Assembly (NCBI GenBank): GCA_036759545.1 | Contig: DAIOUL010000001.1 | Coordinates: 5,983 to 69,982 of the forward strand | Direction: 5' to 3' | Length of the DNA stretch: 64,000 bases | Source of the DNA: Rhodanobacteraceae bacterium | Lineage (GTDB): Bacteria > Pseudomonadota > Gammaproteobacteria > Xanthomonadales > Rhodanobacteraceae | Part shown: in pieces, positions 8,344-37,491 of the stretch | How the letters are laid out: each line of letters starts with the position of its first letter | Numbering within the stretch: the stretch's first letter is position 1 | The notes under the pieces: generated by a model | Database searches by the model: none | The model's input: the letters and a program-made list of their open reading frames with translations, nothing else | Told to the model about the DNA's origin: nothing | Translations under genes and position numbers: made by a program

Positions 8344-10173
<1,830 letters not shown>

Positions 10174-12580: not shown

Positions 12581-13402
12581 CTAGCGCCCTGACATCGCCG
12601 CCCGGCTGAAGACAAAGCCGCGGTACTTTTCCACAGTGCAATCGGGATGGAAAGGGATATCGCAGCGGCGGTCCGGTTGATCCCAGTGATCGCGCGTTTC
12701 ATAACCCCGCCGCTTCAGTTCGTCCATGAATTCGCCCATGGCCTGGATGCGGTAGGCGCAATAGTGCGTTCCCATGTTCTGTACCGTGAAGAAAGACTTC
12801 TGGGGGTGCAGCGGCAATACGTTGACGAGGATATGTCGCGGAGGTACAGCCAAACGATCGAGCAATTCAATCAAAGTGTAGTCGAGATATTGCAGCGAGC
12901 CGGACGCGAACAGCACATCCTGTGCATTTGCATCTTCGCGTTTTTCGGTGAAGCCGATTTGGTGCTCTGCATCGTGATCGCGAGCCCACGCGGCCCCGGC
13001 GGCGACAATCATCGGCAGTTCGCAGACGGTCCAGCGCAGTTCGGAGGGGTAATCCAGGTAGCGCCGGAAAGCGTAGTACTTGATGCCGATATGGCCGCCC
13101 AGATCAAACACCGATCGTGCGCCCTCCCGGAACAATCGTTCCAGCCAGAAAAGCGCGGGGTAGTCGCAGGCCAGGATGTAGCGGGTCCTGGCGGCATACA
13201 GCGCCGCGCCTTCGGCATTGTCGTAACCCACCGGCCGCGTGGTTGGCGCGTGCGCCAGGGCGGCAGCGAAAGTGGGGAACACCCCATAGTACGCGTTGAA
13301 ATCATTCCCGTGATGCGCAAACCGGCGCCGATACGACCGCTCCAGGATGCCTCTCAGTCCGGGCAGCATGCGGGCTTGATGATAAATGGCCTTGAGCGAC
13401 AT
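12581..13402 (-). CDS. putative SAM-dependent methyltransferase (TIGR04325/LIC12133-like family seen in O-antigen loci)
   Basis: The ORF 12581..13540 was trimmed to the internal ATG at 13402 (MSLKAIYHQARMLPG...). Supporting motifs are YYGVFPTFAAALAH, VFDLGGHIGIKYY (motif-I-like) and LFASGSLQYLDY. The family call comes from motif memory only. Confidence 0.55.
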   Translation of the reverse strand: MSLKAIYHQARMLPGLRGILERSYRRRFAHHGNDFNAYYGVFPTFAAALAHAPTTRPVGYDNAEGAALYAARTRYILACDYPALFWLERLFREGARSVFDLGGHIGIKYYAFRRYLDYPSELRWTVCELPMIVAAGAAWARDHDAEHQIGFTEKREDANAQDVLFASGSLQYLDYTLIELLDRLAVPPRHILVNVLPLHPQKSFFTVQNMGTHYCAYRIQAMGEFMDELKRRGYETRDHWDQPDRRCDIPFHPDCTVEKYRGFVFSRAAMSGR

Positions 13403-13538
13403 TCCGGCCCCTCGAATACCAGAATCAGGCGGCTCGCCAGAAGTCCGGGATTCTCCCACCTTTGAACGGCTTGTTGGCCGGCGGAACGGGTGAGAAGATG
13501 GAGGTCCGCTTGGGTACGGATGATGCTTCAGGTTCGCC
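13403..13538. promoter_or_regulatory. divergent promoter region (methyltransferase <-> cupin/NRPS operon)
   Basis: A 136-nt gap lies between divergently oriented starts at 13402 (-) and 13539 (+). This is inferred from gene arrangement only. Confidence 0.3.
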
Positions 13539-14465
13539 ATGGGGGAGATAGCCGCTCGCTGGATCGATGTCGACTGGTCGTCGTTCGATCCTTGGCGCGT
13601 GCAGGGGCCCTTGCGGCACCGGCTGATGGAACACCCGCTGCTGCAATGGGATCAATTGCTGGAGCTGGGCAAACGCCTGGATCCGCTCGGGCAATTCCGC
13701 ACGCACAGCAATCAGGCTCAGGCAGGGACGCCTTTCAACGATGCGCCGCGGATGTTTCGCAACCGCAAGTCTGCGGTGGAGACCATCGAAAGCCTCTCCG
13801 ATGCGAATGCCTGGATGTCGCTCCTGAACGTGCAAACCGACCCGCTATACCGGACTTTGGTCGACGAGGTTCTGGATCAGATCAAGCCCGGGATGGATCG
13901 GGTCGATCCGGGCATGTGCTACCGCGCCGGCTGGATCTTCATGGCTTCGCCGCACACCATCACGCCTTTCCATTTCGATACCGAGCACAGCTTCATCGTG
14001 CAACTCGAAGGACACAAGACCCTGTATGTGTGGGATCCACAGGATCTGGAAGCCGCCAGCGAGCACGCGCGCGACCGTTTCCACGCCTATCACGACCGCA
14101 AGCTGCTGATCTGGCGGGAGGAGCTGCGCCAGCGCGCGCATGTGTTCCGGCTCGAACCCGGTGTCGGCGCCTACATGCCCTGCACCAGTCCGCACCTGGT
14201 GGAAAACGACGACGAACGTTCGTTGACCATGAGTTTTACCTTCTATACCGATTCCACGCGCCGCAGCCGCGCCTTGCACAAGCTGCACGCAGCGCTGCGC
14301 AATCTCGGCATCACGCCCCCCGCTGTGGGGGAGAATCGGCTGCTCGATGCGGTCGGACACGCCCTTTACCGGTGCAAAGACGCCTCGGAATTGACGCTGC
14401 GCCGGCTCACCGGGCGCAAGACGCATCCCGAAAACGCTCCCCACGCTTTCGCCGATGCGATCTGA
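13539..14465 (+). CDS. JmjC/cupin_8-like Fe(II)/2OG oxygenase (aspartyl/asparaginyl beta-hydroxylase-like)
   Basis: ATG at 13539. The double-stranded beta-helix core reads WIFMASPHTITPFHFDTEHSFIVQLEGHKTLYVW (H-x-D), with a distal His in AYMPCTSPHLVEN. It is the first gene in the same orientation as the NRPS/PKS genes. Confidence 0.6.
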   Translation: MGEIAARWIDVDWSSFDPWRVQGPLRHRLMEHPLLQWDQLLELGKRLDPLGQFRTHSNQAQAGTPFNDAPRMFRNRKSAVETIESLSDANAWMSLLNVQTDPLYRTLVDEVLDQIKPGMDRVDPGMCYRAGWIFMASPHTITPFHFDTEHSFIVQLEGHKTLYVWDPQDLEAASEHARDRFHAYHDRKLLIWREELRQRAHVFRLEPGVGAYMPCTSPHLVENDDERSLTMSFTFYTDSTRRSRALHKLHAALRNLGITPPAVGENRLLDAVGHALYRCKDASELTLRRLTGRKTHPENAPHAFADAI

Positions 14466-14558
14466 CGGGCTCGACGGGGTAGCGGTCGAAACAGTCGTTG
14501 TCGAGGCACCTGGCCCCTAGTTTGCTTACTTTCAGTCTCGCCGGTACGTTCATCGAAT

Positions 14559-17500
14559 ATGAGGACCGAAGAATCGCCCCGGCGCGGCAACGCGGGTGTT
14601 CCCGCGCTGCCCGTGTCAGATCCCACGCTCCACGCTTGTGTGGAGCGGCAGGCGCGGCGCGCGCCGGATGCCGTGGCGGTCAAATGCGGCGCGGAATCGT
14701 TCACCTACCGCGAGCTCAACGCCCGTGCCAACCGGCTGGCCCATAAATTGCGCTCGCTCGGCGCAGGTCCGGATTCGCTCGTGGGGATCGGGTTGGAGCG
14801 GTCGCCCGGTATGGTGGTCGGGCTGCTGGCGATCCTGAAATCGGGCGCAGCGTACCTGCCTCTGGACCTCGCCTATCCGCGCGAACGTCTGGAGTTCATG
14901 CTGGCCGACGCGGGCGTCGACATCGTCCTGACTTCACGATCCGGTGCCGAAGCGCTCGGCACCCGCACGGGAACGACGTTGTTGCTGGACGACGAGCAGA
15001 CCACGGCGGGACAACCGGATTCGGATCCGGCGCCGGTTTCGGCCGCAAGCAATCTGGCTTACGTGATCTACACCTCGGGCTCGACAGGCAAGCCGAAGGG
15101 TTGTCTCGTCACCCACGCGAACGTGGTGAGGCTGTTCGCGCAGACGCAGCCCTGGTTCGGCTTCGGACCCAAAGACATCTGGACTTTTTTTCACTCGCAC
15201 GCTTTCGATTTTTCCGTCTGGGAAATCTGGGGTGCGCTGGTGCACGGCGGGCGGGTGGTGGTAGTGCCGCACGAAGTCACCCGCTCGCCCGACGTCTTCC
15301 ACGCATTACTGGCGAGCGAGGGCGTGACAGTCCTCAATCAGACGCCTTCCGCATTCCGCGCATTGATTCAGGCCGATCTTGCTTCGAGCCTGCCGCCGTC
15401 CGAGTTCTCGTTGCGCTACGTGATTTTTGGAGGGGAGGCGCTTGATCTGCAGATGCTGGCGCCCTGGTTCGAAAAACACGGTGACGAGCGGCCGCGCTTG
15501 ATCAACATGTACGGCATCACCGAAACCACCGTGCACGTCACCTATCGACCACTGTCCCGGGTCGATCTGGATCGCAACGCCGGCAGCGTCATCGGGGTGC
15601 CGATTCCGGACCTCGCCGTGTACCTGCTCGATTCCAATTTGCGTCCAGTGCCGGAGGGCGAGATCGGCGAAATGTTCGTGGCCGGTGGCGGGGTGTCGCG
15701 TGGCTATCTCAACCGGCCGGAACTGACAGCGGAACGCTTCATCGACTGGAGCGCTCCCGATGGAGTCATCCGCAAGTTGTATCGGACAGGCGATCTCGCG
15801 CGGCGGCTGCCCGATGGCGATCTGCAATATCTCGGACGTTGCGATCAGCAGATCAAGATACGGGGATTCCGTATCGAAACAGGCGAAATCGAAAGCGCGT
15901 TGCAACGCCATCCCGGTGTGCAAGCCTGCGCCGTGATTGCGCGCGACGACGGACCTGAAGGCGCGCACCGGCTGGTGGCTTATGTGGTGCCGTCGGCGGA
16001 CACGATCTCACCGCCGCAGTTGCGCGAACATCTGGCGGCGAGTCTGCCCGATTACATGCTGCCTTCCGCCTACGTTTTTCTCGATTCACTGCCGCTTACC
16101 GAGAACGGAAAGCTGGACCGCAAGGCTTTGCCCGCTCCCGGACGCGAGCGGCCGGACCTGGCGGTGCCCTTCGACCCGCCGATAGGAGCCGACGAACTTC
16201 GCGTCTGCGGAGTATTCGCGGAGCTGCTGTCGCTGGATCGGGTCGGCCGCAACGACAACTTCTTCGAGCTGGGCGGCAATTCTCTGCTTGCGGCGCGTGC
16301 GGTCACTGCCTTGAACGGAACCGCTGCGAACCTCGCGGTCACTGACATCTTCCGCGCGCCGACTGCGGCCGGCTTGGCGGCGATCATCGCCCGCAGCGCG
16401 GGACACACTGTCGAGCCCTCCCGGCTGGGTGTGGCGAAGCAAGCCGGCGAAGGTGATCCTATCGCGATCATCGCGATGGCCGGCCGCTTTCCCGGCGCAA
16501 AGGATGTCGAGAGCTTCTGGAGGAACCTGTGCGACGGCGTAGAATCCATCACACGCTTCGCACCGGAGCAACTCGATCCTTCCATTCCCGCAGCGCTGCG
16601 CAACGATCCGGCGTACGTGGCCGCACGCGGCGTGATCGAAGGCGTGGAAAACTTCGATGCGGCATTCTTCGGTATCAGCCCGCGCGAAGCGGAATTGATG
16701 GATCCGCAGCAGAGGATCTTCCTCGAATTGTGCTGGGAATGCCTGGAGCGCGGCGGTCACGTCCCCGATGCGCAAAAGGCTCCGGTCGGCATTTTCGCCG
16801 GCATGTACAACGGTACGTACTTCCGCAACCACGTGCAGGCGCATCCGGAGCTGATCGCCAAGCTGGGCGAGTTCCAGGTGATGCTCGGCAACGAGAAGGA
16901 TTACATCGCCACGCGCACCGCGCACAAGCTCAATCTCACCGGGCCGGCGGTCAGCGTGCACACCGCGTGTTCGACCTCGCTCGTGGCGGTTTGCCAAGCC
17001 GTGGAAGCATTGCGCCGCGGCCAATGCCGGATGGCCCTGGCCGGCGGCGCGGCGGTGACGTGTCCGCCGGCGAGCGGTTATCTCCATCAGGAAGGTGCAA
17101 TGTTGTCGCGCGACGGCAGTACGCGCACTTTCGCCGCCGATGCCACCGGCACGGTTTTCAGCGACGGCGCGGCGGTAGTGTTGCTGAAACGCCTCGTCGA
17201 CGCGGAAGCGGATGGTGATCCCATTTATGCAGTGATCCGCGGTTGTGCCGTCAACAATGACGGCGCGGACAAGGCGAGCTTTACCGCACCGAGCGCGCCG
17301 GGCCAGGCCGCGGTGATCGCGATGGCGCTCGATGATGCGGGCGTCGACGCGCGATCGATTTCCTATGTGGAAGCGCACGGCACCGCGACACCGGTCGGCG
17401 ATCCGATCGAGATCGAAGGGCTCACCGCGGCGTTTCGGCGCGATACGCAAGATAGCGGGTATTGCGCGATCGGTTCGGTGAAGAGCAATGTCGGTCATCT

Positions 17501-20500
17501 GGTTACCGCCGCCGGCGCTGCGGGCCTGATCAAGACCGCCTTGGCTCTCTGCGAACGCAAACTGCCGCCAACGCTGCACGCGAAGCCCCTCAGTGCCGCG
17601 ATCGATTTCGCGAATTCCCCGTTCGTCGTCAACGACCGCCTGCGCGAGTGGCGCAGCGAATCCGCGCCGTTGCGCGCGGGCGTCAGCTCGTTCGGCGTCG
17701 GCGGCACCAACGCGCATGTGATCCTGGAAGAAGCACCGGTACGGGAACCTTCGACGCCCGCAGAGGGGCCGCAACTGCTGTTGCTGTCGGCACGCACTTC
17801 AGGCGCATTGAAGGAAGCACGCAAGCGGCTGGCGGCGGAACTCGCGGATCAACCCGGATGCAACTTGGCCGATGTGGCCTGGACCTTGTCCGTGGGCCGC
17901 AAGGCGTTCGCGGAACGCACATTCCTGGTTGCCGCAGAGTGTTCCGAAGCGGCAGCGAAATTGCGGCAAGCTGCTTTGCAGGCGTACACCGCGCAAACAC
18001 GCGAAGTAGTGTGGATGTTTCCGGGCCAGGGCGCCCAGTACGCCGGAATGGGCCGAGCGCTCCATGCCAGTGAACCCGAGTTCCGCGAGGCGCTGGATGC
18101 CTGCGCGGAAATCCTTGCAGGCGAACTCGGCTTCGATCTGCGCGAGCGTCTTTTCTCGGAAGATCCGGACGCACTCGGCGAAACGCGCATCACGCAGCCT
18201 GCCACCTTCGCGATCGAATACGCTCTTGCGCAATTGTGGCTCGCACGCGGCATCCGCCCGGCCGCGCTGATCGGGCACAGCGTCGGTGAGTTCGTCGCGG
18301 CCGTGATCGCGGGCGTGATGGGCCTGGATGACGCTTTGCGACTGGTGGCGCGGCGTGGACAGTTGATGCAGGCCCAGCCGGCGGGCGCGATGCTGTCGGT
18401 GAGGTTGAGCGCCGACAAGCTGGCCGCTCGATTGCCGCCGTCGCTGTCGCTGGCGGCGGAAAACGCGCCGGAGGCCTGCGTGGCGTCCGGTGAAATCGCC
18501 GACATCGAAACGCTGCGGATCGCGTTGGAAGCCGATGGCGTGGCGTGCCGCGCGTTGCGCACCTCTCACGCGTTCCATTCCGCGATGATGGATGCCGTGG
18601 TGGAACCCTTCCGCGCGGAGATGGAACGCGTACCGCTCGCTCCTCCCCGCATACCGATTGCTTCCACCTTGCTGGGCGAATGGCTCGACGAGCGGACGGC
18701 GACTTCGCCTGACTACTGGGCCCGCCATCTGCGAGGGACCGTACGTTTCGCGCGCGCGCTGTCCGTTGCCGCGGAGTTTTCGCCGGATTCCGTCCTGCTC
18801 GAACTGGGGCCGCGCACCACGTTGACGACGCTCGCGCGCATGAATCCGCACGCGCGTTCGCACCTTGCGATCGCGTCGCTCGAAAGCGATGCGCGCGATG
18901 AACGGAGCGTATGGCTTTCCGCAGCCGGACGATTGTGGTGCGCCGGCGCGCCGCTGGATGCCTCGAGCTTCGATCATCGCGAGCGCAAGCGTCGCCTGTG
19001 TTTGCCCACTTATCCGTTCGAGCGCGTGCGTCACTGGGTCGACCCGAGCGTGACGACGCCGGCAGTACAGGTCGCACAGAAATCCGCGGCCTTTGCGGCA
19101 AGCGCTCCGGCGGCTGTTCAGGAGCCGTCGATGACAACAAGTGCTTCCGCCGCGCCGCGCCGCGAGCGCCTCATTGCGCAGATTCTCGCAATGGTCGAAG
19201 ATGTTTCCGGGGAGGATCCGCAGTCGATCGATATCGGCACCAGTTTCGTCGCGCTCGGACTCGATTCGCTGGCGCTGACGCAACTCTCGATGCAGCTATC
19301 CAGGACCTTCGGCGTCAGGATCACTTTCCGTCAGCTGATGGAGGACTTGTCCTCCCCGGAGAAACTGGCCATGAGCATCGACCGCGAACTGCCTCCGGAA
19401 GCGAATCCCGCCGGTTTCGCCGAACAGCCGATGGCGGCTCCGCCGGCCGCGGCGCAAAACGGACTGCTGCAGCAGGTGATCGCGCAGCAGATGATGATCA
19501 TGCAGCAACAACTTGCGATGCTCGGCGGCGCCGGACCGGGCACCTCTGTTTTGCCGACCCATGCGCCGCCGGTCGGTACGAGCGTGCCTGCGGCTGCCGC
19601 ACCTCCGCCGGCGCAGGAAGAGGAAGCCGCGCTGTCGCACACGCGCTATGACGTGAAGAAAGCCTTCGGCGCCATCGCGCGCATACATTCGGGACAGACC
19701 GAACTGACGGAACGTCAGCGTGTGCGTCTCGCCGCTTTCATCGACCGCTACGTTGCGAAAACCCGCAAGTCGAAGGAATACACGGAGCGGCATCGCACCG
19801 TGCTCGCCGATCCGCGCGTCGTCAACGGCTTCCGCCCGCTGCTCAAGGAAGTCGTTTACCAAATCGTGGCCGAACGCTCCAAAGGTTCACGGTTGTGGGA
19901 TCTGGACGGCAACGAATACATCGACGCACTCAACGGCTTCGGCATGAACCTGTTCGGCTGGCAACCCGATTTCGTGCTCGATGCGGTCCGTCGACAGATC
20001 GAACTCGGCTACGAAATCGGCCCGCAGCATCCGCTCGCGGGTGAAGTGGCCGAGCTGGTCTGCGAGATGACGGGGTTCGACCGCGCTGCATTCTGCAATA
20101 CGGGCTCGGAAGCGGTGATGGGCACCGTTCGCGTGGCGCGCACGGTTACTGGGCGCGAAACGCTGGTGATCTTCAGCGGCTCGTATCACGGCATCTTCGA
20201 CGAAGTGATCATGCGCGGCACCAAATCGCTGCGCTCGGTACCGGCGGCGCCCGGCATCCTGCGCAACGCCGCGCAGAACGTGCTCGTGCTCGAATACGGC
20301 ACGGCGGAGTCGCTGGAAATCATTCGGCAGCGCGCGGGCGAAATCGCGGCCGTGCTGGTGGAGCCGGTACAAAGCCGGCGTCCCGACTTCCAGCCGCGCG
20401 AGTTTCTTGCGGAATTGCGCACGATCACCCGCGACGCCGGCGCGGTACTCATTTTCGACGAAGTCGTCACCGGCTTCCGCACGCATCCGCGCGGGGCACA

Positions 20501-28505: not shown

Positions 28506-29510
28506 ATGCCCGATTTGCGACTCAGTGTGATCATCCCGACATGGAATCGCGGGGCGATGACCCTGCGCGCGTTGCGTTCGGTGCTGGCACAGCCTGACGC
28601 GAATCGCCTTGAAATCATCGTGATCATCGATGGTTCGACGGACGACACCGAAATGCTGCTGCGCGCGAACCACGGCGAGGATCCGCGTGTGGACATCCTT
28701 GTTGTCCCGCACGGCGGCGTAAGCGCCGCGCGCAATGCGGGTTTCGCGAGGTCGCGCGGCGAGCTGATCTGCTTTCTCGATTCCGACGACTACTGGTTGC
28801 CCGGCGCTTTCGCCATCGCCGAAAGCGTGTTTGCGCGGCATCCTGGACTGGCTTTCGTCAGCCTCGACGGGAGCACCTTGCCCCGTCCCGGAGCGCCGGC
28901 GCTGTCGCGCGTCATGCGTGCCAATGGGCCCGGCTGGTCACATGCGGCTTTCGCGAACGCGCCGCTCGCCTTCGAAGATATCAGAGCCGGAACCGACAAC
29001 CGCGCAACGCGCGTGCTGCTGGGGGATTTTTTCCCGGCGATCATTCACGGTGATCTGTTCCAGGTCGACGGGCTGTTCATGCGCCGCGAGGCGATAACGC
29101 GCGCCGGGCTCTTCGACTCCCGTTTCGACTATCTCGAGGATTGGGAATTCTTTGCGCGGCTATGTCTGCAGGGACACGGCGCTTACGTGGATTGCGCCGG
29201 CTTCTGCCGCGATGTGGGCCGTGACGACGAACTCACGCATCACCGCGCGGATACCTCGGTGCCGCTTCGGCACCTGCAGATCCTGCATTCGCTGCCGCGG
29301 CGATTTCCGCACCGCATGGCAGCATATGCGGACTGTTTGCGCGGCGCGATGGTGGATGCGCGCTACCAGATGGGTGCGGCGCTTTCGCGCAGCCGGCACC
29401 GGCGCTGGTCCCGGCCATATCTATGTCGCTGCCTGAAGCAACGTTACAAACCCGCGAGATCCCTGGTTCATCTCGCGAGATCGCTGCTTCCACGCGGCCG
29501 AGTTCGGTGA
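28506..29510 (+). CDS. glycosyltransferase family 2
   Basis: The ORF was trimmed to the ATG at 28506. The sequence reads LSVIIPTWNRGAMTLRALRSVLAQ ... IIVIIDGSTDDT ... AARNAGFARSRGELICFLDSDDYW (GT-A fold with DxD). It lies 106 nt downstream of the NRPS TE. Confidence 0.85.
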   Translation: MPDLRLSVIIPTWNRGAMTLRALRSVLAQPDANRLEIIVIIDGSTDDTEMLLRANHGEDPRVDILVVPHGGVSAARNAGFARSRGELICFLDSDDYWLPGAFAIAESVFARHPGLAFVSLDGSTLPRPGAPALSRVMRANGPGWSHAAFANAPLAFEDIRAGTDNRATRVLLGDFFPAIIHGDLFQVDGLFMRREAITRAGLFDSRFDYLEDWEFFARLCLQGHGAYVDCAGFCRDVGRDDELTHHRADTSVPLRHLQILHSLPRRFPHRMAAYADCLRGAMVDARYQMGAALSRSRHRRWSRPYLCRCLKQRYKPARSLVHLARSLLPRGRVR

Positions 29511-29513
29511 GAA

Positions 29514-30440
29514 TCACATCCAGTGCGAGAGGTCGCGCCCGATCAACACCGACAAACGTTCGACATCCGGTCGGCAGCGCGCGCGAAGTTCCGCGTCACG
29601 CGGATCGGGCGGCTTCGGCTTGCCCTGATGCAGCCGCCGCACGGCCAGAACCACTCGGCGCCGGACAGCGTAGGGAAAAATCCGGTCCGACACTTGTCTG
29701 ATCCCCGGTTGTGAATGGACCGCGTTCAAGAAACGCTCCAGTCCACCCTTGATCGGAGGCTCGTTATATACCCGGAATTCCGGCACGAACGAGGGATCGA
29801 CCTGGAGGAATTCCAGGATTCCGCGATAGGTTTTCACAGGGTCCGCCGCGAGATCCTCAAGCAGCACTACATGCACGGAGTCGCGTCCGAACGTGCGCAG
29901 ATAGCGCTCGACTTGCCCCGCGAACTGGGCCACGCCGAAATAATCCTGCCACGCTGGAATTCCGCGGGGCGCCAATCGCAAACCCCTGCGGCGCTCGCCG
30001 CTCGCCGCGACCGCTTCATGGAAGTCGGCGATATTCTCGGTCGGCCCCAGCAGACAGTCTGCATGCCAGGAATGCATCTGTTGCACCGGGTCCCTGAGGG
30101 TGATCAGTATCCGGGCGTCGGGGCAAAACTCCTTGATACGAACGGCGGCCTCTTTCGAGTAGAGATAGAAGGCCGAGGCGTCGCCCCGCCACTTGTAGCC
30201 CTCGCTTCCCGCGTACATCGCGAGATAGACCTGTTCATCCTTGATCGATTTTTCCGCGGGAAGATCGAGGTCGACGCAGAAATATGCCGGCTCTTTTGCA
30301 TGCCAGTAGGCACTTTCTTCGTCGCCGGCCGGAAAGAAGATCTGCGGATGCTTGCGCAGATACTCGTAGAGGGAGGTCGTTCCGCATTTCGGCGCACCTA
30401 CCAGGAAGAGATTGGGACCTGTGCGTGCGGCTGAAGCCAT
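29514..30440 (-). CDS. PAPS-dependent sulfotransferase (PF00685-type)
   Basis: ATG at 30440 is preceded by GGAGG with a 6-nt spacer; the track ORF starts at 30470. The 5'-PSB loop is LFLVGAPKCGTTSLYEYL and the 3'-PB motif is ILITLRDPVQQMHSWH. Confidence 0.85.
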   Translation of the reverse strand: MASAARTGPNLFLVGAPKCGTTSLYEYLRKHPQIFFPAGDEESAYWHAKEPAYFCVDLDLPAEKSIKDEQVYLAMYAGSEGYKWRGDASAFYLYSKEAAVRIKEFCPDARILITLRDPVQQMHSWHADCLLGPTENIADFHEAVAASGERRRGLRLAPRGIPAWQDYFGVAQFAGQVERYLRTFGRDSVHVVLLEDLAADPVKTYRGILEFLQVDPSFVPEFRVYNEPPIKGGLERFLNAVHSQPGIRQVSDRIFPYAVRRRVVLAVRRLHQGKPKPPDPRDAELRARCRPDVERLSVLIGRDLSHWM

Positions 30441-30518
30441 CGAGAACCTCCGGGCATGTGCCCGAAGCATCGCGGATAATTAGATCACGCATTTCGCTCC
30501 GGCGGCAGAGCCGGAGCG

Positions 30519-32192
30519 TCAGCTCTTGCGTCCGAGCAGGTCCTTTGCGAGCCCTTTGGCTTGCGACCAGCGCATCGGCAGCGAGTCACCCACGCGAACC
30601 TCCACGAGGGTCACTCCCTGGTTGCCCAGCGCGTCGTGCAGTGTGTTGTCCGGCTCACTTTCGAAACGCACGTAACGGGCACCCAACGCTGCGGCCAGGG
30701 CTTTACAGTCGACAGCCCCGAGCTGCGTGCCGAATGCGTGACCGTGAGCCGCGCGTTGCTGATTGCGGATGGCGCCATAGGCGCCGTCGACGAACACGAT
30801 CACCGTCAAGCTGAGGCCTTCGCGTACCGCAGTCAGCAGTTCCAGTCCCGACATGCCCAGTCCGCCGTCTCCGATCAGCGCGACCACCGGGCGATCCGGC
30901 GCGGCGAGCTTTGCACCGATCGCCGCGCCGATTCCGAAACCCATCGACTGCAGATTGGTCGGAGTGATCAGGCCGCGCGCGGACCAGACCGGAAAATGGC
31001 GGCGTGCAAGGTCCTGGTGCTGCCCCGAATCGGTCACAAGGATAGAGTCGCGCGGCAATGCGCGTCGCAGTGCACCGAAAAAAGCCGCAGGAGCGCCGGC
31101 GGCAACGCCGTGGATGCGCGGTTCGATCACGCCTTCCAATTTCTCGGCGGTGGCGCGCCGCTTCCACTGCGCCATTTCGCCGGCTTCGAAGCCACGCGAT
31201 GGATCCGCCTCTTCCAGGCGCACGCAAAGGTCCTGCAAGAACCTGCGCGCATCGGCGCGGATCACGAGACGCGCCGGGTAGTTCGCACCGAGCACTTCTT
31301 CCGATGCATCCACGTGGATCAGTTTTTCTTGCGGGATGCGCAGCCGAAAACCGCGACTGCCGTTGTGGGAAAACTTGCATCCTACGGCCAGCACCTGATC
31401 GCAACTCTCGATCAAGGCATTCAAGCTTTCCACGTTGTTGCCGCTGCATTCGAAACCCAGCGACAACGGATGGTCTTCCGCCAAAACACCGCGGCCGGAA
31501 GTTGTGGTGATCACCGCGGCGTGCAGCCTTTCGGCCAATCGAAGCGCGGATTCGGCCGCGCCATGGCAACCCTGGCCCAACAACAATACGCAGCGCCGCG
31601 CCCGGTTCAGGGCAAGCGCCGTCGTTGCGATCGCTTCTTCGTTCGACAGAGGCGAATGCATCTCCTTTTCCGGCCAACGGGATTCGATCGGAGAACCGCC
31701 ATCAGGCCGCTGCGAGATTTGCAGCAGCACCGGACCGGGTTCGCCTTCCAGCGAGAGCCGGTACGCGCGCACCAAGGCTTCGCCCAATTCGCCGATGTGC
31801 TCGACGGAAAAAACCGCCTTGTACAACGGCGCGGCCACGGACGTCTGATTGAAGGCCTGCAATTGAAAGTGACTGCCAGGAGCCGTCGCGGGTGCTCCCG
31901 TGATGTGGAGCAGCGCCGCCGAATCCAGCGCCGCTTCCGCGATGCCCGGCAGCGCCCACGCGAAACCGGGACCAGGAATGGTAAGCACCACTCCGGGCCG
32001 GCCGCTGGCGCGGTAATAGCCATTCGCCATCATCGCCGCGGACAACTCGCTGGTCGCGACGACGGAACGCAAACTGGAAGTGCGCAGCGCTTCGTACAGC
32101 GCGACGTTCTGCGTGCCGGGCAGTCCGAATACGCAATCGGCACCGACCTGCCGCAACGCGTCCACCAGCTTGTCGGCACCTCGAGTATTCAT
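30519..32192 (-). CDS. thiamine-diphosphate-dependent enzyme (acetolactate synthase large-subunit-like; substrate unknown)
   Basis: ATG at 32192 (MNTRGADKLVDALRQVGADCVFGLPGTQNVALYEAL); GAGG lies upstream. The ThDP-binding motif is IGDGGLGMSGLELLTAVREGLSLTVIVFVDGAYG (GDG...N/D pattern). Length is 557 aa. Confidence 0.85.
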   Translation of the reverse strand: MNTRGADKLVDALRQVGADCVFGLPGTQNVALYEALRTSSLRSVVATSELSAAMMANGYYRASGRPGVVLTIPGPGFAWALPGIAEAALDSAALLHITGAPATAPGSHFQLQAFNQTSVAAPLYKAVFSVEHIGELGEALVRAYRLSLEGEPGPVLLQISQRPDGGSPIESRWPEKEMHSPLSNEEAIATTALALNRARRCVLLLGQGCHGAAESALRLAERLHAAVITTTSGRGVLAEDHPLSLGFECSGNNVESLNALIESCDQVLAVGCKFSHNGSRGFRLRIPQEKLIHVDASEEVLGANYPARLVIRADARRFLQDLCVRLEEADPSRGFEAGEMAQWKRRATAEKLEGVIEPRIHGVAAGAPAAFFGALRRALPRDSILVTDSGQHQDLARRHFPVWSARGLITPTNLQSMGFGIGAAIGAKLAAPDRPVVALIGDGGLGMSGLELLTAVREGLSLTVIVFVDGAYGAIRNQQRAAHGHAFGTQLGAVDCKALAAALGARYVRFESEPDNTLHDALGNQGVTLVEVRVGDSLPMRWSQAKGLAKDLLGRKS

Positions 32193-32244
32193 TCGCCTCG
32201 TACCTGCGCTATTTGCCGCCGCAAGCCGGCCACATTCCTCGCCG

Positions 32245-35049
32245 TTACAGCAATTTTTCCAGCTCGCCAGCCAAAGCTCGCGCGAATACATCATCCCGCA
32301 TGCTCAGGTAATGCGAACGCAATGAAGGAGGGAAGCGCGCGGCGAGTTCCTGCGTGCGTCCGGCAGCGACGCCCAGCGCCAGCCGGTGCACCCGGAGCTG
32401 GGTCACATATGGCGCGAACTGCGACGCCAGCAAACCACAATGCGGCCCCTCGGGATCGAACAATGTCAGCGTGCCGTCGAACGGCTGAAGCCGATATCGG
32501 TGCTGCGTGCGCACTTGCAACTGATACTGGATCGCGATCAGCTCGATGTTTTTGGGGTCGATCTCGGGAGCCGCGCTGCTCGCTTTGATCAACAGTGCCG
32601 GAAGATATTGCTTCGGCTGCAATGAATCCAGTTCGCGCTCCTCCAGCGCGAATGGAAGGCCGGAATTGAGTTCCAGCAACGCCGACAGCTCCAGAACATG
32701 TTGGCGGCTGGTTCTCACCTCGGTTTCGAATTCCAGGAATTGCTCGCGCGTCAGCGCGAAGTCGTCCGCCACGTTCGAGAGGCCATTTTGGTTTGAACGT
32801 GGCGCGACCCGGTGCAAGAGACCGGCGAAATGAATGAGGCGTGCGAATGCCGGTCGCATGAATCTGGCCCGGAACGCCCAATGGCCGAAGCGGCGCTCGT
32901 CGGCGCAGTCCATCGCCAGAGGGTCGACCAGCGCCAGAAGCGCGATCTCCTCGCCCGCACAACGAAGTTGCCGCGCGATCTCGTATGCGAACGCACCGGC
33001 AGACGAATAAGCGAGCAGATAGTAGGGGCCCTCCGGCTGTCGCTCGCGGATCGCGTTCAGATAGAGCCTCGTCCAATTCTGAAATCCGGTTGTCGGATCT
33101 CTCGCGCCCTGCAGAAATGGATCCCGTACGCCAATCACTTCCCGTCCGGTTTTGAGCGCATGGATGGTTTTTTCGTATGCGCCCAGCGTTCCGCCTGCAG
33201 ACGAAATGACGAACAACGGAGCAGCATGGGCATCCCGCGCAGACTTCAAGGTGACGAGTATGGAGCCCGCGGAGGCGAAGCCGGAAGCGTGGCCTTCGCG
33301 CGCACGATCAATGTGGGATGCCAACGTGCGGATGGTGGGGAACCGGTACACGGCGTCGTCCGGGAGCTGATCGCGCTCGAGCCCGAACGCCTCGCGCAAT
33401 CGTGCAATGACCGAAAACGTCTTCAGCGAGCTTCCACCCACTTCGAAGAAATTGCTGTCGAGCTGAAACCGGTCATGCATCAGGACGGCCTTCCACACGC
33501 CGGCCACCCGTTGCTCGGTGTCCGTTCCGGCAACAACGGGAGGAACAGTTGCTGCCAGCGGTGCATCGGTCTCCAGCAGTTTCAATCTGTCGACCTTCCC
33601 GCTCAAGGTGAGGGGGAACGTCGCCAGCCCGATCACGTGAGCAGGCATCATGTAATCGGGTAACTGTTCCCTGAGCGCCCGCAATACTTCAGCAGCAGGA
33701 ATGTCCGCAGGAGATACGAAGGCGACCAACGCGGCGCTGCCGTCAGGTTGCTCCTTTGCGATTACCGCGCACTGTCTGACCATCGAAAGCGCCGAAATCG
33801 TTTTTTCGACTTCCTGGAGATCCACCCGAAAGCCCCTGATCTTGACGGTGTGATCGATACGGCCGATAAATTCCAGCGAGCCGTCCCCTGTTCGGCGCAC
33901 TTGGTCGTTCGTGCGATAGAGCCGCTGGCCGTCGAGCATGATGAACGCGCGCTCGGTGAGCGCGGGGTTCCCGAAGTACTCGGAGAAGAGCGCAGGTCCG
34001 CCGATGTGGAGCATGCCTGCCGCGCCCACGGCGGCGGGCTGGAGATTGTCATCCAGGACGTACGCCCGCACTTCCGGAGAGATCGGTTTTCCGAGCGGCA
34101 GTTCACCGCCCCTTCGAGCCGATTCCCGGAGATCGCACACCAAAACCGAACTGGCTTCGGTGCTGCCGTAGATCGAATAGATGTTTGTCGCACCCGGAAA
34201 TGCCGCGAGTGTTCGCGCTGCGAGCTCGGGGTGCAGATATTCGCCCATCAGCACCAGCACGCGAACATCCGGCGCGGCAAAGCCGGGCATGTCCAGCGAT
34301 GCCTGCAATACCGACGGAACGATCAGCAGCCGCGAGATGCCGCGCCGCTCGATCGTGTCCCAGAATGTTTCCAGCTTCTTCGTTTCCCGGTCGGAGATGA
34401 TGCAGACGGGAACCCCGCGAAGCAGCGGCTCGAAAAGTTCGTAGACGGCGTGGGTCGTCGTCATGTGGGCCTTCTGGCAGCACACTTCACCGGCGGCGTA
34501 TGGATGCATGTCCCAAGTCCACTGCAGCCGGTGAAAGAAAGAGCGGTGGCTTCGCACGATCATCTTCGGCGCCCCGGTGGAACCGGACGAGCAAAGAACG
34601 AATGCTGGCCGGGCCGGGTTGCCATCCTGGAGGACTTGGGTCGCCTCCCGTGCGAGTTCATCGGAGGCGTGCAGGATGCGATGGTGCAGGCCCGGATCGA
34701 GAGGGGATTTGCAGTCGTCGATCACCGCATCGAGGCCGGTAAACGACAGGATCCTGCGCAGGCGGCCGATCGGATAGGAGGGTGGCAAGGGCACGGCTGC
34801 CCCGTTCGCTTTCAGCACCCCCAGAACGCTTGCGACATAGTGGCGCGAGCGCTCCATGTGGATTCCCACGAAAGCGCCCTCCGGAACATTGCGGGTACGG
34901 ATCGCTGCGGCCAACCGGTTCGACGCGGAATCGAGCTCCGCGAAGTTCATCGTGCCGTCGTCATCCAGCAGTGCGATTGCCTCGGGCGTGCGCGCCGCCT
35001 GCTCCTCGAAAAGCCGGTCGAGACGAAAAACAGGCACTGGCGAGTTCAC
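32245..35049 (-). CDS. stand-alone NRPS-like enzyme A-T-TE
   Basis: GTG start at 35049 with GAGG 5 nt upstream. A domain: LCSSGSTGAPKMIV (nt 34564-34590 region), YSIYGSTE, YRTNDQVR, GRIDHTVKIRGFRVDLQEVE and LSGKVDRLKL. T: FFEVGGSSLKT with Ser541 at 33427-33429. TE: PLFVISSAGG and AYSSAG with Ser683 at 33001-33003. Confidence 0.9.
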   Translation of the reverse strand: MNSPVPVFRLDRLFEEQAARTPEAIALLDDDGTMNFAELDSASNRLAAAIRTRNVPEGAFVGIHMERSRHYVASVLGVLKANGAAVPLPPSYPIGRLRRILSFTGLDAVIDDCKSPLDPGLHHRILHASDELAREATQVLQDGNPARPAFVLCSSGSTGAPKMIVRSHRSFFHRLQWTWDMHPYAAGEVCCQKAHMTTTHAVYELFEPLLRGVPVCIISDRETKKLETFWDTIERRGISRLLIVPSVLQASLDMPGFAAPDVRVLVLMGEYLHPELAARTLAAFPGATNIYSIYGSTEASSVLVCDLRESARRGGELPLGKPISPEVRAYVLDDNLQPAAVGAAGMLHIGGPALFSEYFGNPALTERAFIMLDGQRLYRTNDQVRRTGDGSLEFIGRIDHTVKIRGFRVDLQEVEKTISALSMVRQCAVIAKEQPDGSAALVAFVSPADIPAAEVLRALREQLPDYMMPAHVIGLATFPLTLSGKVDRLKLLETDAPLAATVPPVVAGTDTEQRVAGVWKAVLMHDRFQLDSNFFEVGGSSLKTFSVIARLREAFGLERDQLPDDAVYRFPTIRTLASHIDRAREGHASGFASAGSILVTLKSARDAHAAPLFVISSAGGTLGAYEKTIHALKTGREVIGVRDPFLQGARDPTTGFQNWTRLYLNAIRERQPEGPYYLLAYSSAGAFAYEIARQLRCAGEEIALLALVDPLAMDCADERRFGHWAFRARFMRPAFARLIHFAGLLHRVAPRSNQNGLSNVADDFALTREQFLEFETEVRTSRQHVLELSALLELNSGLPFALEERELDSLQPKQYLPALLIKASSAAPEIDPKNIELIAIQYQLQVRTQHRYRLQPFDGTLTLFDPEGPHCGLLASQFAPYVTQLRVHRLALGVAAGRTQELAARFPPSLRSHYLSMRDDVFARALAGELEKLL

Positions 35050-35180: not shown

Positions 35181-36464
35181 ATGGCGAATCATGGGGAAAA
35201 CCGATGGGCCAGGAGCGCTGATCCTATCCCAGTGCAGCACGCGCACATGGTGCAGCCGGTCGAGCACAGGGGATTGCGGGCGGCGGGGCTTGAGCGGAAA
35301 GCCTTGCCGGCGATCGTGGTCGGGAGTGGTCATACCGGGCTGGGCATGCTGCGCGCGCTGCATCTCGCGGGAATCGAAACCTGGGTTGCGTGTCCGGCGA
35401 ACGATCTGGCCGCGCATTCGCGTTGGTATCGCCCCGTGCCCGGCGTTCGCTGGGATGGCAGCCTCGGTCCGCAAACGCCCGCGCTGCTGGAAGCATTGCC
35501 CGACGCCGTGCTCATTCCGGGGGCCGACGATGCGGCGTTGTGGATTTCTGATTTGCCCTCTTCACCGCTCGGGCGCCGCTTTCCGGTAAGCACCAGTTCT
35601 CGCGGAACGCTGGAAATCCTGCAGAACAAGTCCCGATTCGCCGATTTCCTGCGCGGTACCGCGATACCGCACCCACGCAGTTTTCCGTTGCGCGCTGCCG
35701 CAGATATCGCTGCCATCCCCTTCGAAGAAATCGACCGCGTTTTCGTCAAGCCTGCCAACTCGCAGGAATTCACCCGCCACACCGGTGTGAAGGGGTTGGC
35801 TGCGAATGGCCGTGCGGACGTCGAGCGCATCTGGGACCAGCTCCAGCGGCGGGGTCTGGAAGCGATGGTGCAGGAATACATCCCCGGGCCGGCCAGCGAG
35901 CACTACTTCATCGACGGCTTCCGCGATCGAAACGGCATGCTGACGGGATTATTCGCGCGCCGGCGGCTGCGGATCCATCCACCCGATTTCGGCAACAGTT
36001 CATACTGCGAAAGCATCGCCCTGGATGAAGTCGATCCGGCGCTGCAGAATCTTGCCGGCTTGCTGGACATGCTCGGCTATCGCGGCATTTTCAGCGCGGA
36101 GTTCAAGCGCGACGCGCGCGACGGCGAGTTTCGAATACTGGAAATCAACACGCGCGGCTGGTGGTACGTGGAATTTGCTGCGCGTTGTGGCGTGAATGTG
36201 TGCCGGATGGCCTACGACGATGCGCAGGGAAAGTCCGTCAGGCCGGCATCGCGCAAGTACCGCATCGGGGCCGGTTGCGTCAACCTCGCGGGCGACATCA
36301 AAACGGTATTCAGGTCACCCGCTGGACGCGGATCGTGGTGGACGGTTGTCCGGCAATGGGTGCGAACGCGATTCCTGGTCTTTCGTTCCGATGACCCTGG
36401 GCCGGCGTGGTTCACCGTGAAGAGGATGCTGCGCCGCCGCTGGCGAAGAGCTAGTGCGAACTGA
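35181..36464 (+). CDS. ATP-grasp family carboxylate-amine ligase (COG3919-like)
   Basis: The ORF 34782..36464 was trimmed to the ATG at 35181; an alternative ATG is at 35247. Motifs are PAIVVGSGHTGLGMLRALHLAGIE, VFVKPANSQEF, MVQEYIPGPASEHYFIDGF and YRGIFSAEFKRDARDGEFRILEINTRGWWY (ATP-grasp Mg/ATP site pattern E-x-N). Confidence 0.7.
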   Translation: MANHGENRWARSADPIPVQHAHMVQPVEHRGLRAAGLERKALPAIVVGSGHTGLGMLRALHLAGIETWVACPANDLAAHSRWYRPVPGVRWDGSLGPQTPALLEALPDAVLIPGADDAALWISDLPSSPLGRRFPVSTSSRGTLEILQNKSRFADFLRGTAIPHPRSFPLRAAADIAAIPFEEIDRVFVKPANSQEFTRHTGVKGLAANGRADVERIWDQLQRRGLEAMVQEYIPGPASEHYFIDGFRDRNGMLTGLFARRRLRIHPPDFGNSSYCESIALDEVDPALQNLAGLLDMLGYRGIFSAEFKRDARDGEFRILEINTRGWWYVEFAARCGVNVCRMAYDDAQGKSVRPASRKYRIGAGCVNLAGDIKTVFRSPAGRGSWWTVVRQWVRTRFLVFRSDDPGPAWFTVKRMLRRRWRRASAN

Positions 36465-36474
36465 GGGGCAGGTC

Positions 36475-37491
36475 ATGGATGACAGCGAAATCCGGCTATT
36501 GCGCGGCGCAGCGGAAACCGCCCACAATGGCGCCTCCAGGGCGCGCAGCGAAAAGCCGCCTCTGTCGCACGCCGATGGGCGCGAAGGGCAACGTGGTTCG
36601 CCGATGCAGCGCGTCAAGATCGACAGACCCATTTTCGTCGTCGGCGTCGGCCGCAGCGGCTCGAGTATTTTTCATCAGATGTTCGCCGAACATCCGGACT
36701 TGGTCTGGTTGTCCACCTTGTGCGATCTGCTCCCGTTCAATCTCGGGCCGCACCGCACACTGATGCGGATGATCGACTGGCCCTTGCTCGGTTCCCTGCT
36801 GAAGCGCCGCTACGAACCCGCGGAATGTTACGTGTTCTGGAATCACCACTGCCTGGGATTTCGCCAGCCATTTCGCGATTTGCTGGCGTCGGATGTGAGC
36901 GAACTGAACCGGCGGCAGGTGCATCGGGTGATGGGTGCATTGCCGGTCGGACGCAGGCAACGGTTGCTCTACAAGATCACCGGCTGGCCGCGGATCGGAT
37001 TTCTGCATGAGCTGTTTCCGGACGCACGCTTCATCCACGTCTACCGCGATGGGCGCGCCGTGGCGAATTCGCTGCTGGCGGTAGATTTCTGGCAAGGCTG
37101 GCATGGTCCGCCGCAATGGCGCTGGGGCGCGTTGTCTCCCGAGCACCAGGCCGAATGGGAGCGACACGGCAAATCTTTCGTCGCCTTGGCGGGAATTCAG
37201 TGGAAGTTGTTGATGGACGCCACCGCCGAAGCGGCAGCGCGCATCCCTCCCGGGCAGTTCATGGCTATCCGCTACGAGGAATTCGTTACCGACCCTTTGT
37301 CCAATTTCAAGCAGGTCGTGGAATTTTGCGGGCTGGACTGGTCCCGCAAATTCGAGAAAGCGATCGCTTCGTATACGCTGGAAACCGCCAATGGCAAATG
37401 GCGCGAGGATCTCACCCCGCCTCAGCAGGCAATCCTGCAATCGGTGCTTGCTGAAAGCTTGGTGAAATACGGCTACTCACCGGACGCTTGA
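36475..37491 (+). CDS. sulfotransferase family protein (Sulfotransfer_3/PF13469-like)
   Basis: ATG at 36475 follows GAGGGG; a later candidate ATG at 36604 lies just before the P-loop. The PAPS-binding loop is IFVVGVGRSGSSIFHQMF and the 3'-PB-like motif is FIHVYRDGRAVANSL. It starts 10 nt after the ATP-grasp stop. Confidence 0.75.
   Translation: MDDSEIRLLRGAAETAHNGASRARSEKPPLSHADGREGQRGSPMQRVKIDRPIFVVGVGRSGSSIFHQMFAEHPDLVWLSTLCDLLPFNLGPHRTLMRMIDWPLLGSLLKRRYEPAECYVFWNHHCLGFRQPFRDLLASDVSELNRRQVHRVMGALPVGRRQRLLYKITGWPRIGFLHELFPDARFIHVYRDGRAVANSLLAVDFWQGWHGPPQWRWGALSPEHQAEWERHGKSFVALAGIQWKLLMDATAEAAARIPPGQFMAIRYEEFVTDPLSNFKQVVEFCGLDWSRKFEKAIASYTLETANGKWREDLTPPQQAILQSVLAESLVKYGYSPDA

Follow-up and report, generated by a model that had tools for sequence, protein, structure and literature searches.

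A conserved PKS/NRPS module is integrated into an exopolysaccharide locus of the XrtA/PEP-CTERM type in Rhodanobacteraceae and relatives

We analyzed a 64,000-nucleotide stretch of DNA from a Rhodanobacteraceae bacterium (assembly GCA_036759545.1, contig DAIOUL010000001.1, positions 5,983 to 69,982 of the forward strand), referred to here as the window and numbered from its first letter. The window is a Wzx/Wzy-dependent exopolysaccharide (EPS) locus of the XrtA/PEP-CTERM type that encloses a full thiotemplate assembly line, made up of a hybrid polyketide synthase (PKS) and a nonribosomal peptide synthetase (NRPS). This line is a conserved, uncharacterized PKS/NRPS module integrated into the EPS pathway. 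Its linkage to EPS genes across Rhodanobacteraceae, Lysobacter, and relatives suggests that the predicted peptide is made for the polysaccharide; that the peptide would be installed on, or would work with, the polymer is a reading for which we judge the chances to be evenly balanced.

An EPS locus encloses a full PKS/NRPS assembly line

The gene list is based on an open reading frame (ORF) listing and on Pfam and NCBIfam scans of the window proteins (large ORFs). Three curated markers of this locus type score over their cut-offs: the priming glycosyl-phosphotransferase EpsB_2 (TIGR03013, 557.8 bits versus 393.35; a Dyella orthologue reaches 564.7 bits), a chain-length determinant (TIGR03007, 370.6 versus 278.85), and an export protein (TIGR03027, 204.8 versus 180). 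With these markers, the claim of an earlier note on this DNA that a full assembly line lies inside an EPS locus of the PEP-CTERM/exosortase type stands, as does the export-assembly operon that it placed at 47718-60638 (-), which holds the latter two. A tyrosine autokinase and an outer membrane protein have TIGR03018 and TIGR03016 as their best matches, at 165.4 and 41.4 bits, under the respective cut-offs of 230.65 and 90.85.

The genes named in that note lie where it placed them, give or take a few codons (ORF, Pfam, and NCBIfam scans), and against its figure of about 5,500 amino acids (aa) of thiotemplate enzymes we count 5547 (2208 + 2405 + 934; Pfam). It overlooked a conserved J-domain protein, and its three transcription units are four: the methyltransferase (MT) and J-domain genes (-); JmjC-PKS-NRPS-GT2 (+); A-T-TE-ThDP-ST1 (-); and ATP-grasp-ST2 (+). 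A promoter and terminator scan of 27.5-38.5 kb gave nothing exceeding shuffled expectation. The genes of the region and its left flank are as follows (A, adenylation; C, condensation; T, thiolation; KS, ketosynthase; AT, acyltransferase; ACP, acyl carrier protein; AMT, aminotransferase; TE, thioesterase; ThDP, thiamine diphosphate; PAPS, 3'-phosphoadenosine-5'-phosphosulfate).

8344..10173 (-): GlmS, glutamine-fructose-6-phosphate aminotransferase (Pfam SIS and GATase); left edge, amino-sugar supply
10642..12042 (+): EpsB_2, priming polyprenyl-phosphate glycosyl-phosphotransferase (TIGR03013); opens the conserved block
12059..12487 (-): J-domain protein, 142 aa, with a C-terminal membrane helix (Pfam DnaJ, 29.8 bits)
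12581..13402 (-): S-adenosylmethionine-type MT, TIGR04325 (LIC12133; 222 bits versus a cut-off of 80), divergent from the JmjC gene; the call of 273 aa is taken from a 99.8%-identical contig (L050)
13539..14465 (+): JmjC/cupin-8 Fe(II)/2-oxoglutarate oxygenase (Pfam JmjC_2/Cupin_8)
14559..21185 (+): hybrid NRPS-PKS with the predicted order A(Thr)-T-KS-AT(malonyl)-ACP-AMT (class III) (Pfam domains); called the PKS below
21182..28399 (+): NRPS with the predicted order C-A1(Gly-like)-T-C-A2*(degenerate)-T-TE (Pfam)
28506..29510 (+): family 2 glycosyltransferase (GT2) resembling the EPS repeat-unit type (Pfam Glycos_transf_2); closes the PKS/NRPS operon
29514..30440 (-): sulfotransferase 1 (ST1), PAPS type, carbohydrate-sulfotransferase-like (PF13469/PF00685)
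30519..32192 (-): ThDP-dependent enzyme of the acetolactate synthase/2-oxoacid decarboxylase family (three TPP domains)
32245..35049 (-): stand-alone A-T-TE protein, 934 aa (Pfam)
35247..36464 (+): ATP-grasp ligase of a family widespread in Xanthomonadales (weak Pfam/NCBIfam matches)
36475..37491 (+): sulfotransferase 2 (ST2), PAPS type (PF13469, 98 bits)

The PKS stop overlaps the NRPS start (ATGA at 21182-21185). As the earlier note had stated, the 64 kb hold no phosphopantetheinyl transferase (PPTase), MbtH-like protein, or separate type II thioesterase: tblastn with three PPTases of related loci returned nothing, the MbtH motif was not found in the window, and Pfam and NCBIfam scans yielded neither a type II thioesterase nor a dedicated small-molecule exporter. 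Its statement that there is no transporter holds for such an exporter and fails for the polymer, since the Wzx flippase and Wza/Wzc-type export proteins that are present are EPS transporters.

The core is linked to EPS genes across genera

The block EpsB_2/J-domain/MT/JmjC/PKS/NRPS recurs in Dyella, Dokdonella, Lysobacter, and Pseudoxanthomonas at 48-85% identity (loci that we numbered L006, L008, L010 to L013, L053, and L054). Five genera share the same left junction between the core and the priming transferase, in the order EpsB_2/J-domain/(MT)/JmjC/PKS. EpsB_2 orthologues adjoin the PKS/NRPS core in L008, L010, L017, L053, and L054; J-domain orthologues stand beside it in L006, L008, L010, L012, L017, and L053; MT orthologues are found in L006, L008, L010, L011, L013, and L054; and the JmjC gene lies directly upstream of the PKS in every locus compared. 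GlmS orthologues (74-76% identity) adjoin the core in L013 and L017, and a deacetylase is present in all related loci. Many NRPS homologues of 48-80% identity occur in Dyella, Luteibacter, Dokdonella, Rhodanobacter, and Lysobacter, a taxonomic spread that the JmjC family shares. Five arrangements illustrate the range:

L010 (80%): EpsB_2, J-domain, MT, JmjC, PKS, NRPS, GT2, ST1, ThDP, FemAB-like, ATP-grasp, deacetylase, ST2, GT2
L012 (Dyella nitratireducens): J-domain, JmjC, PKS, NRPS, deacetylase, Wzy, CapK-like, GT4, GT4, deacetylase, GT4, GT2
L013, a minimal version: epimerase, MT, JmjC, PKS, NRPS, GalE, VanZ, GlmS
L008 (Lysobacter niastensis): PKS, JmjC, J-domain, EpsB_2, PPTase, MT, ATP-grasp
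L053 (Dyella japonica-type) and L054 (Pseudoxanthomonas): TviB-like dehydrogenase, epimerase, PPTase, EpsB_2, J-domain and/or MT-like, JmjC, PKS, NRPS

A PPTase gene lies directly upstream of the TIGR03013 gene in L008, L053, and L054, and in the latter two it comes after a TviB-like dehydrogenase (627 bits, over cut-off) and an epimerase. Over the orthologous and looked-up loci as a whole, four have a PPTase gene placed between sugar-nucleotide genes and the priming transferase. A metagenome scan queried with an alignment of the degenerate second A domain of the NRPS (A2) returned 36 loci, 24 of them orthologous. EPS-type genes follow the NRPS in all 24, in three gene orders, and in none of the 11 unrelated NRPS/PKS loci of the same scan, which served as an internal control. 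Among nine distinct loci obtained by exact look-up of related proteins, eight carry EPS genes beside the PKS/NRPS; the ninth holds the ATP-grasp gene only. Across about 30 loci, the neighbors of the core included no gene for an exporter, a receptor, or resistance.

Two side observations concern these loci. An ATP-grasp/low-molecular-weight phosphotyrosine phosphatase fusion of 571-587 aa lies at the locus edge in L010 (26623-27212) and L011 (25576-27218) and is absent from the window. As background to the J-domain gene, the Escherichia coli membrane J-protein DjlA induces capsule synthesis.

The PKS/NRPS block is an integral part of the locus

The earlier note had presented the region as an island standing between the priming transferase and the remaining EPS genes. 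A horizontally acquired metabolite island that landed by chance between EpsB_2 and the other EPS genes would fit the position of the thiotemplate genes, which do stand between EpsB_2 and the glycosyltransferase and export genes, and it would fit a partial exchange relative to L010, in which the ThDP and ATP-grasp proteins are 64% and 59% identical, their neighbors ST1 and ST2 are 87-88% identical, and the A-T-TE gene replaces a FemAB-like gene. Composition speaks against such an origin. Windowed GC content is 0.62-0.66 in the region and 0.61-0.65 in the flanks, so that the region is not distinct from them, and the PKS/NRPS genes (GC, 0.65; GC at third codon positions [GC3], 0.76) are close to GlmS (0.65 and 0.80) and EpsB_2 (0.63 and 0.80). 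The only deviant gene, encoding an FkbM methyltransferase (37819-38484, +; GC, 0.51, and GC3, 0.60, versus about 0.63 and 0.76 in its neighbors), lies outside the region.

No integrase or transposase was matched by Pfam among the window proteins. The two ARAGORN tRNA calls are aberrant, lie inside coding sequence, and are false positives; no direct repeats were found at the boundaries, the repeats detected being paralogous NRPS motifs. With the junction to EpsB_2 the same in five genera, we consider a chance insertion extremely improbable. Because EpsB_2 shares the conserved block with the PKS/NRPS genes, no insert separates the priming transferase from its locus: in relatives it is joined to the PKS/NRPS block, and an empty site, with EpsB_2 contiguous with the downstream EPS genes, was not found in relatives in a limited search. 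The PKS/NRPS block is thus a conserved, integral module of the EPS locus and not a foreign insert.

The ARAGORN calls themselves lie at 16989-17076 (in the PKS gene) and 28661-28757 (in the GT2 gene); they are 88 and 97 nucleotides long, and one has a four-base anticodon. Synteny between L010 and the window ends at the FkbM gene, just after ST2.

The line is predicted to make a diamino acyl-Gly-Gly scaffold

A domains were aligned to the Phe-activating A domain of GrsA, a procedure that recovered the GrsA code, DAWTIAAICK, as a check. The ten specificity residues of the loading A domain (A0) are DFWNIGMVHK, which we take to be the canonical Thr code of a Stachelhaus-type table, and the domain carries the NRPS A-domain motifs FDxS and NxYGxTE. 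The Thr code is found in the window and in L010; orthologues in L011, L012, L013, L031, L053, and L054 have Val codes (DAFWLGGTFK and DALWLGGTFK). The specificity of A0 has thus switched between Val and Thr, two isosteric residues, within otherwise orthologous PKS genes, a clean natural swap.

The KS has the active-site Cys motif TACSTS and the catalytic His motifs EAHGTATP and KSNVGHL. The AT has the motifs GHSVGE and HAFH, and because of the latter it is expected to be malonyl specific. The AMT retains its pyridoxal phosphate lysine (SYGKVIGGG). In the mycosubtilin synthetase MycA, such a domain aminates an ACP-bound beta-ketothioester (PMC3870968), and by analogy a 3,4-diamino-5-hydroxyhexanoyl thioester is the expected output of the first protein. 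The code of the first NRPS A domain (A1), DIVQIGGVYK, grades through single changes among 93 same-length homologues to DILQIGAVWK, which is close to the Gly code DILQLGLIWK; the substrate of A1 is therefore likely to be Gly-like, with Gly itself probable. From these assignments, the predicted scaffold is a (Thr-derived beta,gamma-diamino acyl)-Gly-Gly of about 276 Da before tailoring.

The AMP-binding/carrier/KS/AT/carrier/aminotransferase/C order is also that of MycA (PMC3870968), and an iturin-type lipopeptide, in which a beta-amino fatty acid would anchor the polysaccharide in the membrane, has been considered. We regard this as very unlikely: A0 is an NRPS A domain with both diagnostic motifs and an exact Thr code (Val in orthologues), there is a single extension module, and there is no starter C domain. 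Since the loading domain is an amino acid A domain with a Thr code, no fatty acid starter is expected, and the line is, judging by that code, primed by an amino acid and not by a lipid. Of the two roles on the polysaccharide that the earlier note had offered for the product, decoration of the polysaccharide gains weight from the conserved linkage, and an anchor loses it with the Thr-code loading domain and the missing fatty acid starter. A first reading of A0 as a fatty acyl-AMP ligase of an iturin-like lipopeptide was dropped when its specificity code proved to be that for Thr. Some PKS orthologues of 2400 aa have an N-terminal extension of about 220 aa in which no Pfam domain was recognized and which possibly reflects overlong gene calls; an exact look-up of the 2208-aa PKS sequence returned no record.

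The JmjC protein has the HxD...H triad in its sequence, and its structural model (pLDDT, 91) finds YxbC, NO66/MINA53, FIH, and YcfD as best folds, all residue hydroxylases; the protein is accordingly modeled as a predicted hydroxylase of an amino acid residue. PDB sequence searches gave only marginal or weak matches for this protein and no match for the MT. The best match of the NRPS TE is the TE region of Pks13 (86 bits), a lead toward sugar transfer that we did not use as evidence.

A degenerate A domain is conserved in the NRPS

A2 is the one domain of the line whose chemistry is not competent. It lacks the P-loop and the NxYGPTE motif, and the invariant Asp of YRTGD is replaced by Phe (TGF). 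The domain is dead in this way in 61 of the 93 same-length NRPS homologues, and all 61 retain the HHxxxDG motif of the second C domain (C2) and the Ser of the second T domain (T2). The remaining 32 have an intact A2 with Gly codes, one of them exactly DILQLGLIWK. Because 61 homologues share the dead A2 with C2 and T2 motifs intact, the domain does not represent decay of the module, and its conservation suggests that it keeps a noncatalytic role. Most simply, both carriers would receive the same residue from A1. A single A domain serving several carriers is known from HMWP2 of yersiniabactin synthesis, and the dead A2, conserved in 61 homologues whose C and T partners remain live, would provide a clean natural case of such trans-loading.

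In the window, the degenerate domain spans 26200-27200, where the P-loop, the A5 motif, and the A7 Asp are gone; in homologues, the A10 Lys is often gone as well. Its length and sequence (RTG[YFW]RGRW and GRLDRR) are kept in the 61 homologues across genera.

The tailoring genes vary between lineages

The genes for ST1, ST2, ThDP, and ATP-grasp are found only in the nearest relatives (L010, L011, and L014 to L016) and in part in Dokdonella, and the common Dyella-type loci lack them. The A-T-TE gene, for which no orthologue was found in any other locus compared, takes the place of a FemAB-like gene of L010, L011, L014 to L016, and L006, whose best match is TIGR03019, under cut-off. Together with the uneven identities to L010 given above (ST2, 88%), this looks like cassette exchange in the ThDP/A-T-TE/ATP-grasp part.

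In the A domain of A-T-TE, Thr replaces Asp235, the residue that binds the alpha-amino group, and for this reason the substrate of the domain probably lacks an alpha-amino group. The ThDP enzyme of the same operon reaches no NCBIfam equivalog and has IlvB and BbmA as best PDB matches. A PDB sequence search of the ATP-grasp protein gave no match, and a scan of genome contigs with it returned a single 4-kb contig of a metagenome-assembled genome. Homologues of this protein at about 60% identity are abundant, and its use as a cluster marker was dropped because the family is abundant in Xanthomonadales and includes a Rhodanobacter gene between ahcY and metF.

The two sulfotransferases, which the earlier note called unrelated, both match PF13469/PF00685, are similar at the PAPS loop only, and are otherwise very distant. 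ST1 has a PKxGTT loop and matches PDB entry 3rnl at 1e-44, followed by heparan sulfate N- and 3-O-sulfotransferases, and ST2 has weak PDB matches to tyrosylprotein sulfotransferases. The best NCBIfam matches of the GT2 are EpsD, TuaG, and WcaA, all under cut-off; it has a 77% identical orthologue in L010 and L015, and many Dyella-type loci likewise have a GT2 after the NRPS. In sequence, it resembles the EPS repeat-unit type and not a natural-product transferase. The suggestion that the peptide itself is sulfated or glycosylated loses ground here, with the sulfotransferases absent from Dyella-type loci, ST1 similar to glucosaminyl N-/3-O-sulfotransferases, and the GT2 similar to EPS repeat-unit transferases; the sulfotransferases and the GT2 more likely act on sugar.

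A model for the product and its relation to the polymer

In the model that we propose, A0 would load Thr (Val in most orthologues), the KS and AT would add one malonate unit, and the in-line AMT would convert the beta-keto group to an amine, giving a 3,4-diamino-5-hydroxyhexanoyl unit. Two modules would then add Gly-like residues, T2 being loaded in trans, most simply by A1; trans-loading is proposed because C2 and T2 have been conserved next to an A2 that is dead. The JmjC enzyme would hydroxylate a residue, the MT would methylate the product, and the product released by the TE would, before tailoring, be C10H20N4O5, with a mass of about 276 Da. This amine-rich peptide, made in the cytoplasm, would be joined to the undecaprenyl-linked repeat unit begun by EpsB_2, either by transfer of the peptide thioester to an amino sugar freed by the deacetylase of the locus or through bonds between peptide amines and a 2-acetamido-uronic acid. 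The latter could be GlcNAcA or GalNAcA, given the TviB/TviC-like genes. The peptide would leave with the polymer through Wzx/Wzy/Wza, which would explain the lack of a dedicated exporter in about 30 loci. In the TE-less majority of orthologues, a transferase instead of hydrolysis could free the chain. ST1, ST2, ThDP, A-T-TE, and ATP-grasp would together be a tailoring cassette specific to this lineage, one that sulfates the same glycoconjugate and transfers a non-amino acyl group to it.

The main alternative is that the PKS/NRPS product is a free, secreted small molecule coregulated with the EPS, for example one that signals in biofilms or flocs, chelates metals, or acts as an antibiotic. The window NRPS has a normal TE at its end, and such a domain as a rule sets its product free; a vicinal diamine with a hydroxyl and a carboxylate could bind metals; and N-acyl amino acid synthases, which make small acylated amino acids, have been linked to PEP-CTERM systems (Craig, Cherry, and Brady 2011, as cited in PMC8776678). 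This alternative leaves several observations less well accommodated, and we hold it to be possible though somewhat doubtful. Genes for an exporter, a receptor, or resistance were not found next to the core in about 30 loci; in L053 and L054, the PPTase gene lies among the sugar-nucleotide genes, next to the priming transferase; and the linkage to EPS genes persists through three gene orders. Most orthologues with a dead A2 (58 of 61) have no TE. Attachment to the polymer would account both for the PPTase among sugar genes and for this TE-less majority.

Several points weigh against attachment. A conserved neighborhood is linkage and not attachment: no enzyme that would join peptide to sugar was identified in the locus, and the proposal draws on gene linkage, with the flanks of related loci covered up to 10 kb. 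The TE that would release the chain is absent from 58 of 61 orthologues with a dead A2. Five of the ten residues in the A1 code depart from those of the canonical Gly code. A fold search with the ATP-grasp model (pLDDT, 90) returned generic carboxylase/ligase folds that give no clue to its substrate, and members of this family also occur far from any such cluster, as in Rhodanobacter. The scanned window proteins (large ORFs) include no match to an exosortase family, and no PEP-CTERM-like tail was found in six frames of the window; exosortase and PEP-CTERM proteins may be encoded elsewhere in the genome.

A further reading would have the line build an acceptor handle for exosortase, a flexible Gly-Gly linker with a terminal vicinal diamine on the EPS repeat, to whose free amine XrtA would join PEP-CTERM proteins, by analogy with the Fem-built pentaglycine bridge that serves sortase. 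The alternation of FemAB-like, A-T-TE, and CapK-like genes, the Gly codes, and the AMT-made amines fit such a handle. We nonetheless consider this role unlikely.

Comparison with known systems

MycA of the mycosubtilin/iturin group and McyE of microcystin synthesis have the same contiguous KS-AT-ACP-AMT(class III)-C order, in which a beta-ketothioester becomes a beta-amino acyl group that is passed to an NRPS (PMC3870968). Their starter is a fatty acid or polyketide, whereas the window line would start from Thr or Val and arrive at a beta,gamma-diamino acid; it also has two NRPS modules only, one with a dead A domain, and its genes belong to an EPS locus instead of an antibiotic cluster. The predicted diamino acid block and the case for trans-loading hold regardless of the role of the product in the EPS. 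To our knowledge, a Val- or Thr-derived beta,gamma-diamino acid building block of this kind does not occur in any described natural product.

With XrtA/PEP-CTERM EPS loci, the window shares the core markers TIGR03013, TIGR03007, and TIGR03027, all over their cut-offs. Of that system, the exosortase EpsH was proposed by Haft et al. to be a transpeptidase (PMC1569441). Matches in the window group to the XrtA accessories (FemAB-like TIGR03019, deacetylase TIGR03006, and acyl-CoA ligase/hydrolases TIGR03098-03101) are all under cut-off: the A domain of A-T-TE scores 144 on TIGR03098 (cut-off, 592), and a hydr2_PEP-like gene directly after the NRPS in L017 scores 70 on TIGR03101 (cut-off, 203). The likeness to accessory sets extends to the TIGR03019-like FemAB genes of relatives, and the pyridoxal phosphate-dependent decarboxylase of the XrtA-associated ligase/ACP/decarboxylase/hydrolase set is not present. 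Unlike those loci, the window group has a multimodular PKS/NRPS that replaces or adds to the small accessory sets.

In Nod-factor tailoring, NodB deacetylates, NodA transfers an N-acyl group from the NodF carrier, NodH is a sulfotransferase, and NodS is a methyltransferase. The logic of deacetylating an amino sugar, transferring a carrier-bound acyl group, sulfating with PAPS, and methylating is alike, and the four kinds of enzyme occur in the window or its relatives; the acyl group would, however, be a peptide-polyketide and the acceptor a polymer repeat unit, and the window has no NodA-like transferase. In D-alanylation of teichoic acid, the adenylating enzyme DltA and the carrier protein DltC decorate a cell surface glycopolymer. 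A-T-TE shares adenylation and a carrier with that system (200 bits on the DltA model, under the cut-off of 560) and differs from it in the loss of Asp235, so that its substrate is probably not an amino acid, and in its fused TE; no DltB-type membrane-bound O-acyltransferase was found in Pfam scans of the window. Mycobacterial glycopeptidolipids are surface glycoconjugates made by PKS, NRPS, glycosyltransferases, methyltransferases, and, in some species, sulfotransferases. These are lipid primed, use GT1-type transferases, and are made outside a Wzx/Wzy polymer pathway, in contrast to the window line.

PAPS-type sulfotransferases with PAPS loops lie in the window inside a locus with Wzx, Wzy_C, Poly_export, and Wzz-like proteins, and the synechan (xss) cluster of Synechocystis likewise has sulfotransferases inside a Wzx/Wzy-type EPS cluster (PMC8205485). 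That cluster is cyanobacterial and has no thiotemplate enzymes, and sulfation of the window polymer is only predicted. The same paper describes sulfated EPS as being, among bacteria, unique to cyanobacteria (PMC8205485).

Like the earlier note, we recognized no described cluster that matches: literature searches in the contexts of Dyella, Rhodanobacteraceae, PEP-CTERM, and EPS yielded no description, and a Luteibacter preprint lists NRPS and T1PKS clusters generically only. Should the peptide prove to be attached, we would know of no earlier polysaccharide decoration that a PKS/NRPS line assembles, and the pathway would offer bacteria a new means of making EPS that is cationic or zwitterionic and possibly sulfated. 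The question bears on the purpose of the non-sugar biosynthetic genes in PEP-CTERM/exosortase loci and on the attachment target of exosortase, and strains of Dyella, Dokdonella, Lysobacter, and Pseudoxanthomonas that can be cultured and have the same core make it open to test.

Other features of the window

Outside the region, the EPS locus extends to the right end of the window, where a TviB-like gene lies.

From 37819 (+ for FkbM): FkbM methyltransferase, then a GalE-like epimerase and a GT4 (Pfam/NCBIfam)
47718-60638 (-): assembly/export operon with GINT1_N-like, GT4, GT2, deacetylase, Wzy_C, and two GT4 genes, continuing with a TIGR03016-like porin, a TIGR03018-like kinase, TIGR03007, and TIGR03027
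60707-61846 (-): TviC-like epimerase, 65% identical to the epimerase beside TviB in Dyella
61885-63663 (+): S15 X-Pro dipeptidyl-peptidase (Pfam)
63676-64000 (-): TviB-like UDP-GlcNAc 6-dehydrogenase, truncated by the window end

The TviB-like and TviC-like genes are adjacent in Dyella and are split in the window by the S15 peptidase gene on the opposite strand. The GT4 gene is followed by two secreted choice-of-anchor-Q proteins, Wzx, DUF218, and a methyltransferase. The secreted proteins (40756-42423 and 42680-44569, +) are paralogues that share 54% identity; both have signal peptides and match choice-of-anchor-Q weakly. They belong to no Pfam family and could be polymer-modifying or polymer-degrading enzymes. 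The 3'-most gene of the minus-strand operon (47718-49397, -) matches GINT1_N at 1e-39, a domain named for the eukaryotic glucosamine inositolphosphorylceramide transferase and unusual in a bacterium.

To the left of the priming transferase lie genes for a GH31 protein, a 2-oxoglutarate (2OG) oxygenase, a GH36 protein, a GDSL esterase, and GlmS (-) (Pfam/NCBIfam). The 2OG-Fe(II) oxygenase gene (197 aa, PF13759; 4632-5225, -) is nested in the mechanical ORF 1855-5265, and the GH31 gene is for this reason really about 924 aa long. A distant paralogue of the oxygenase (26% identity) lies on the other strand at about 1390-1833 (+).

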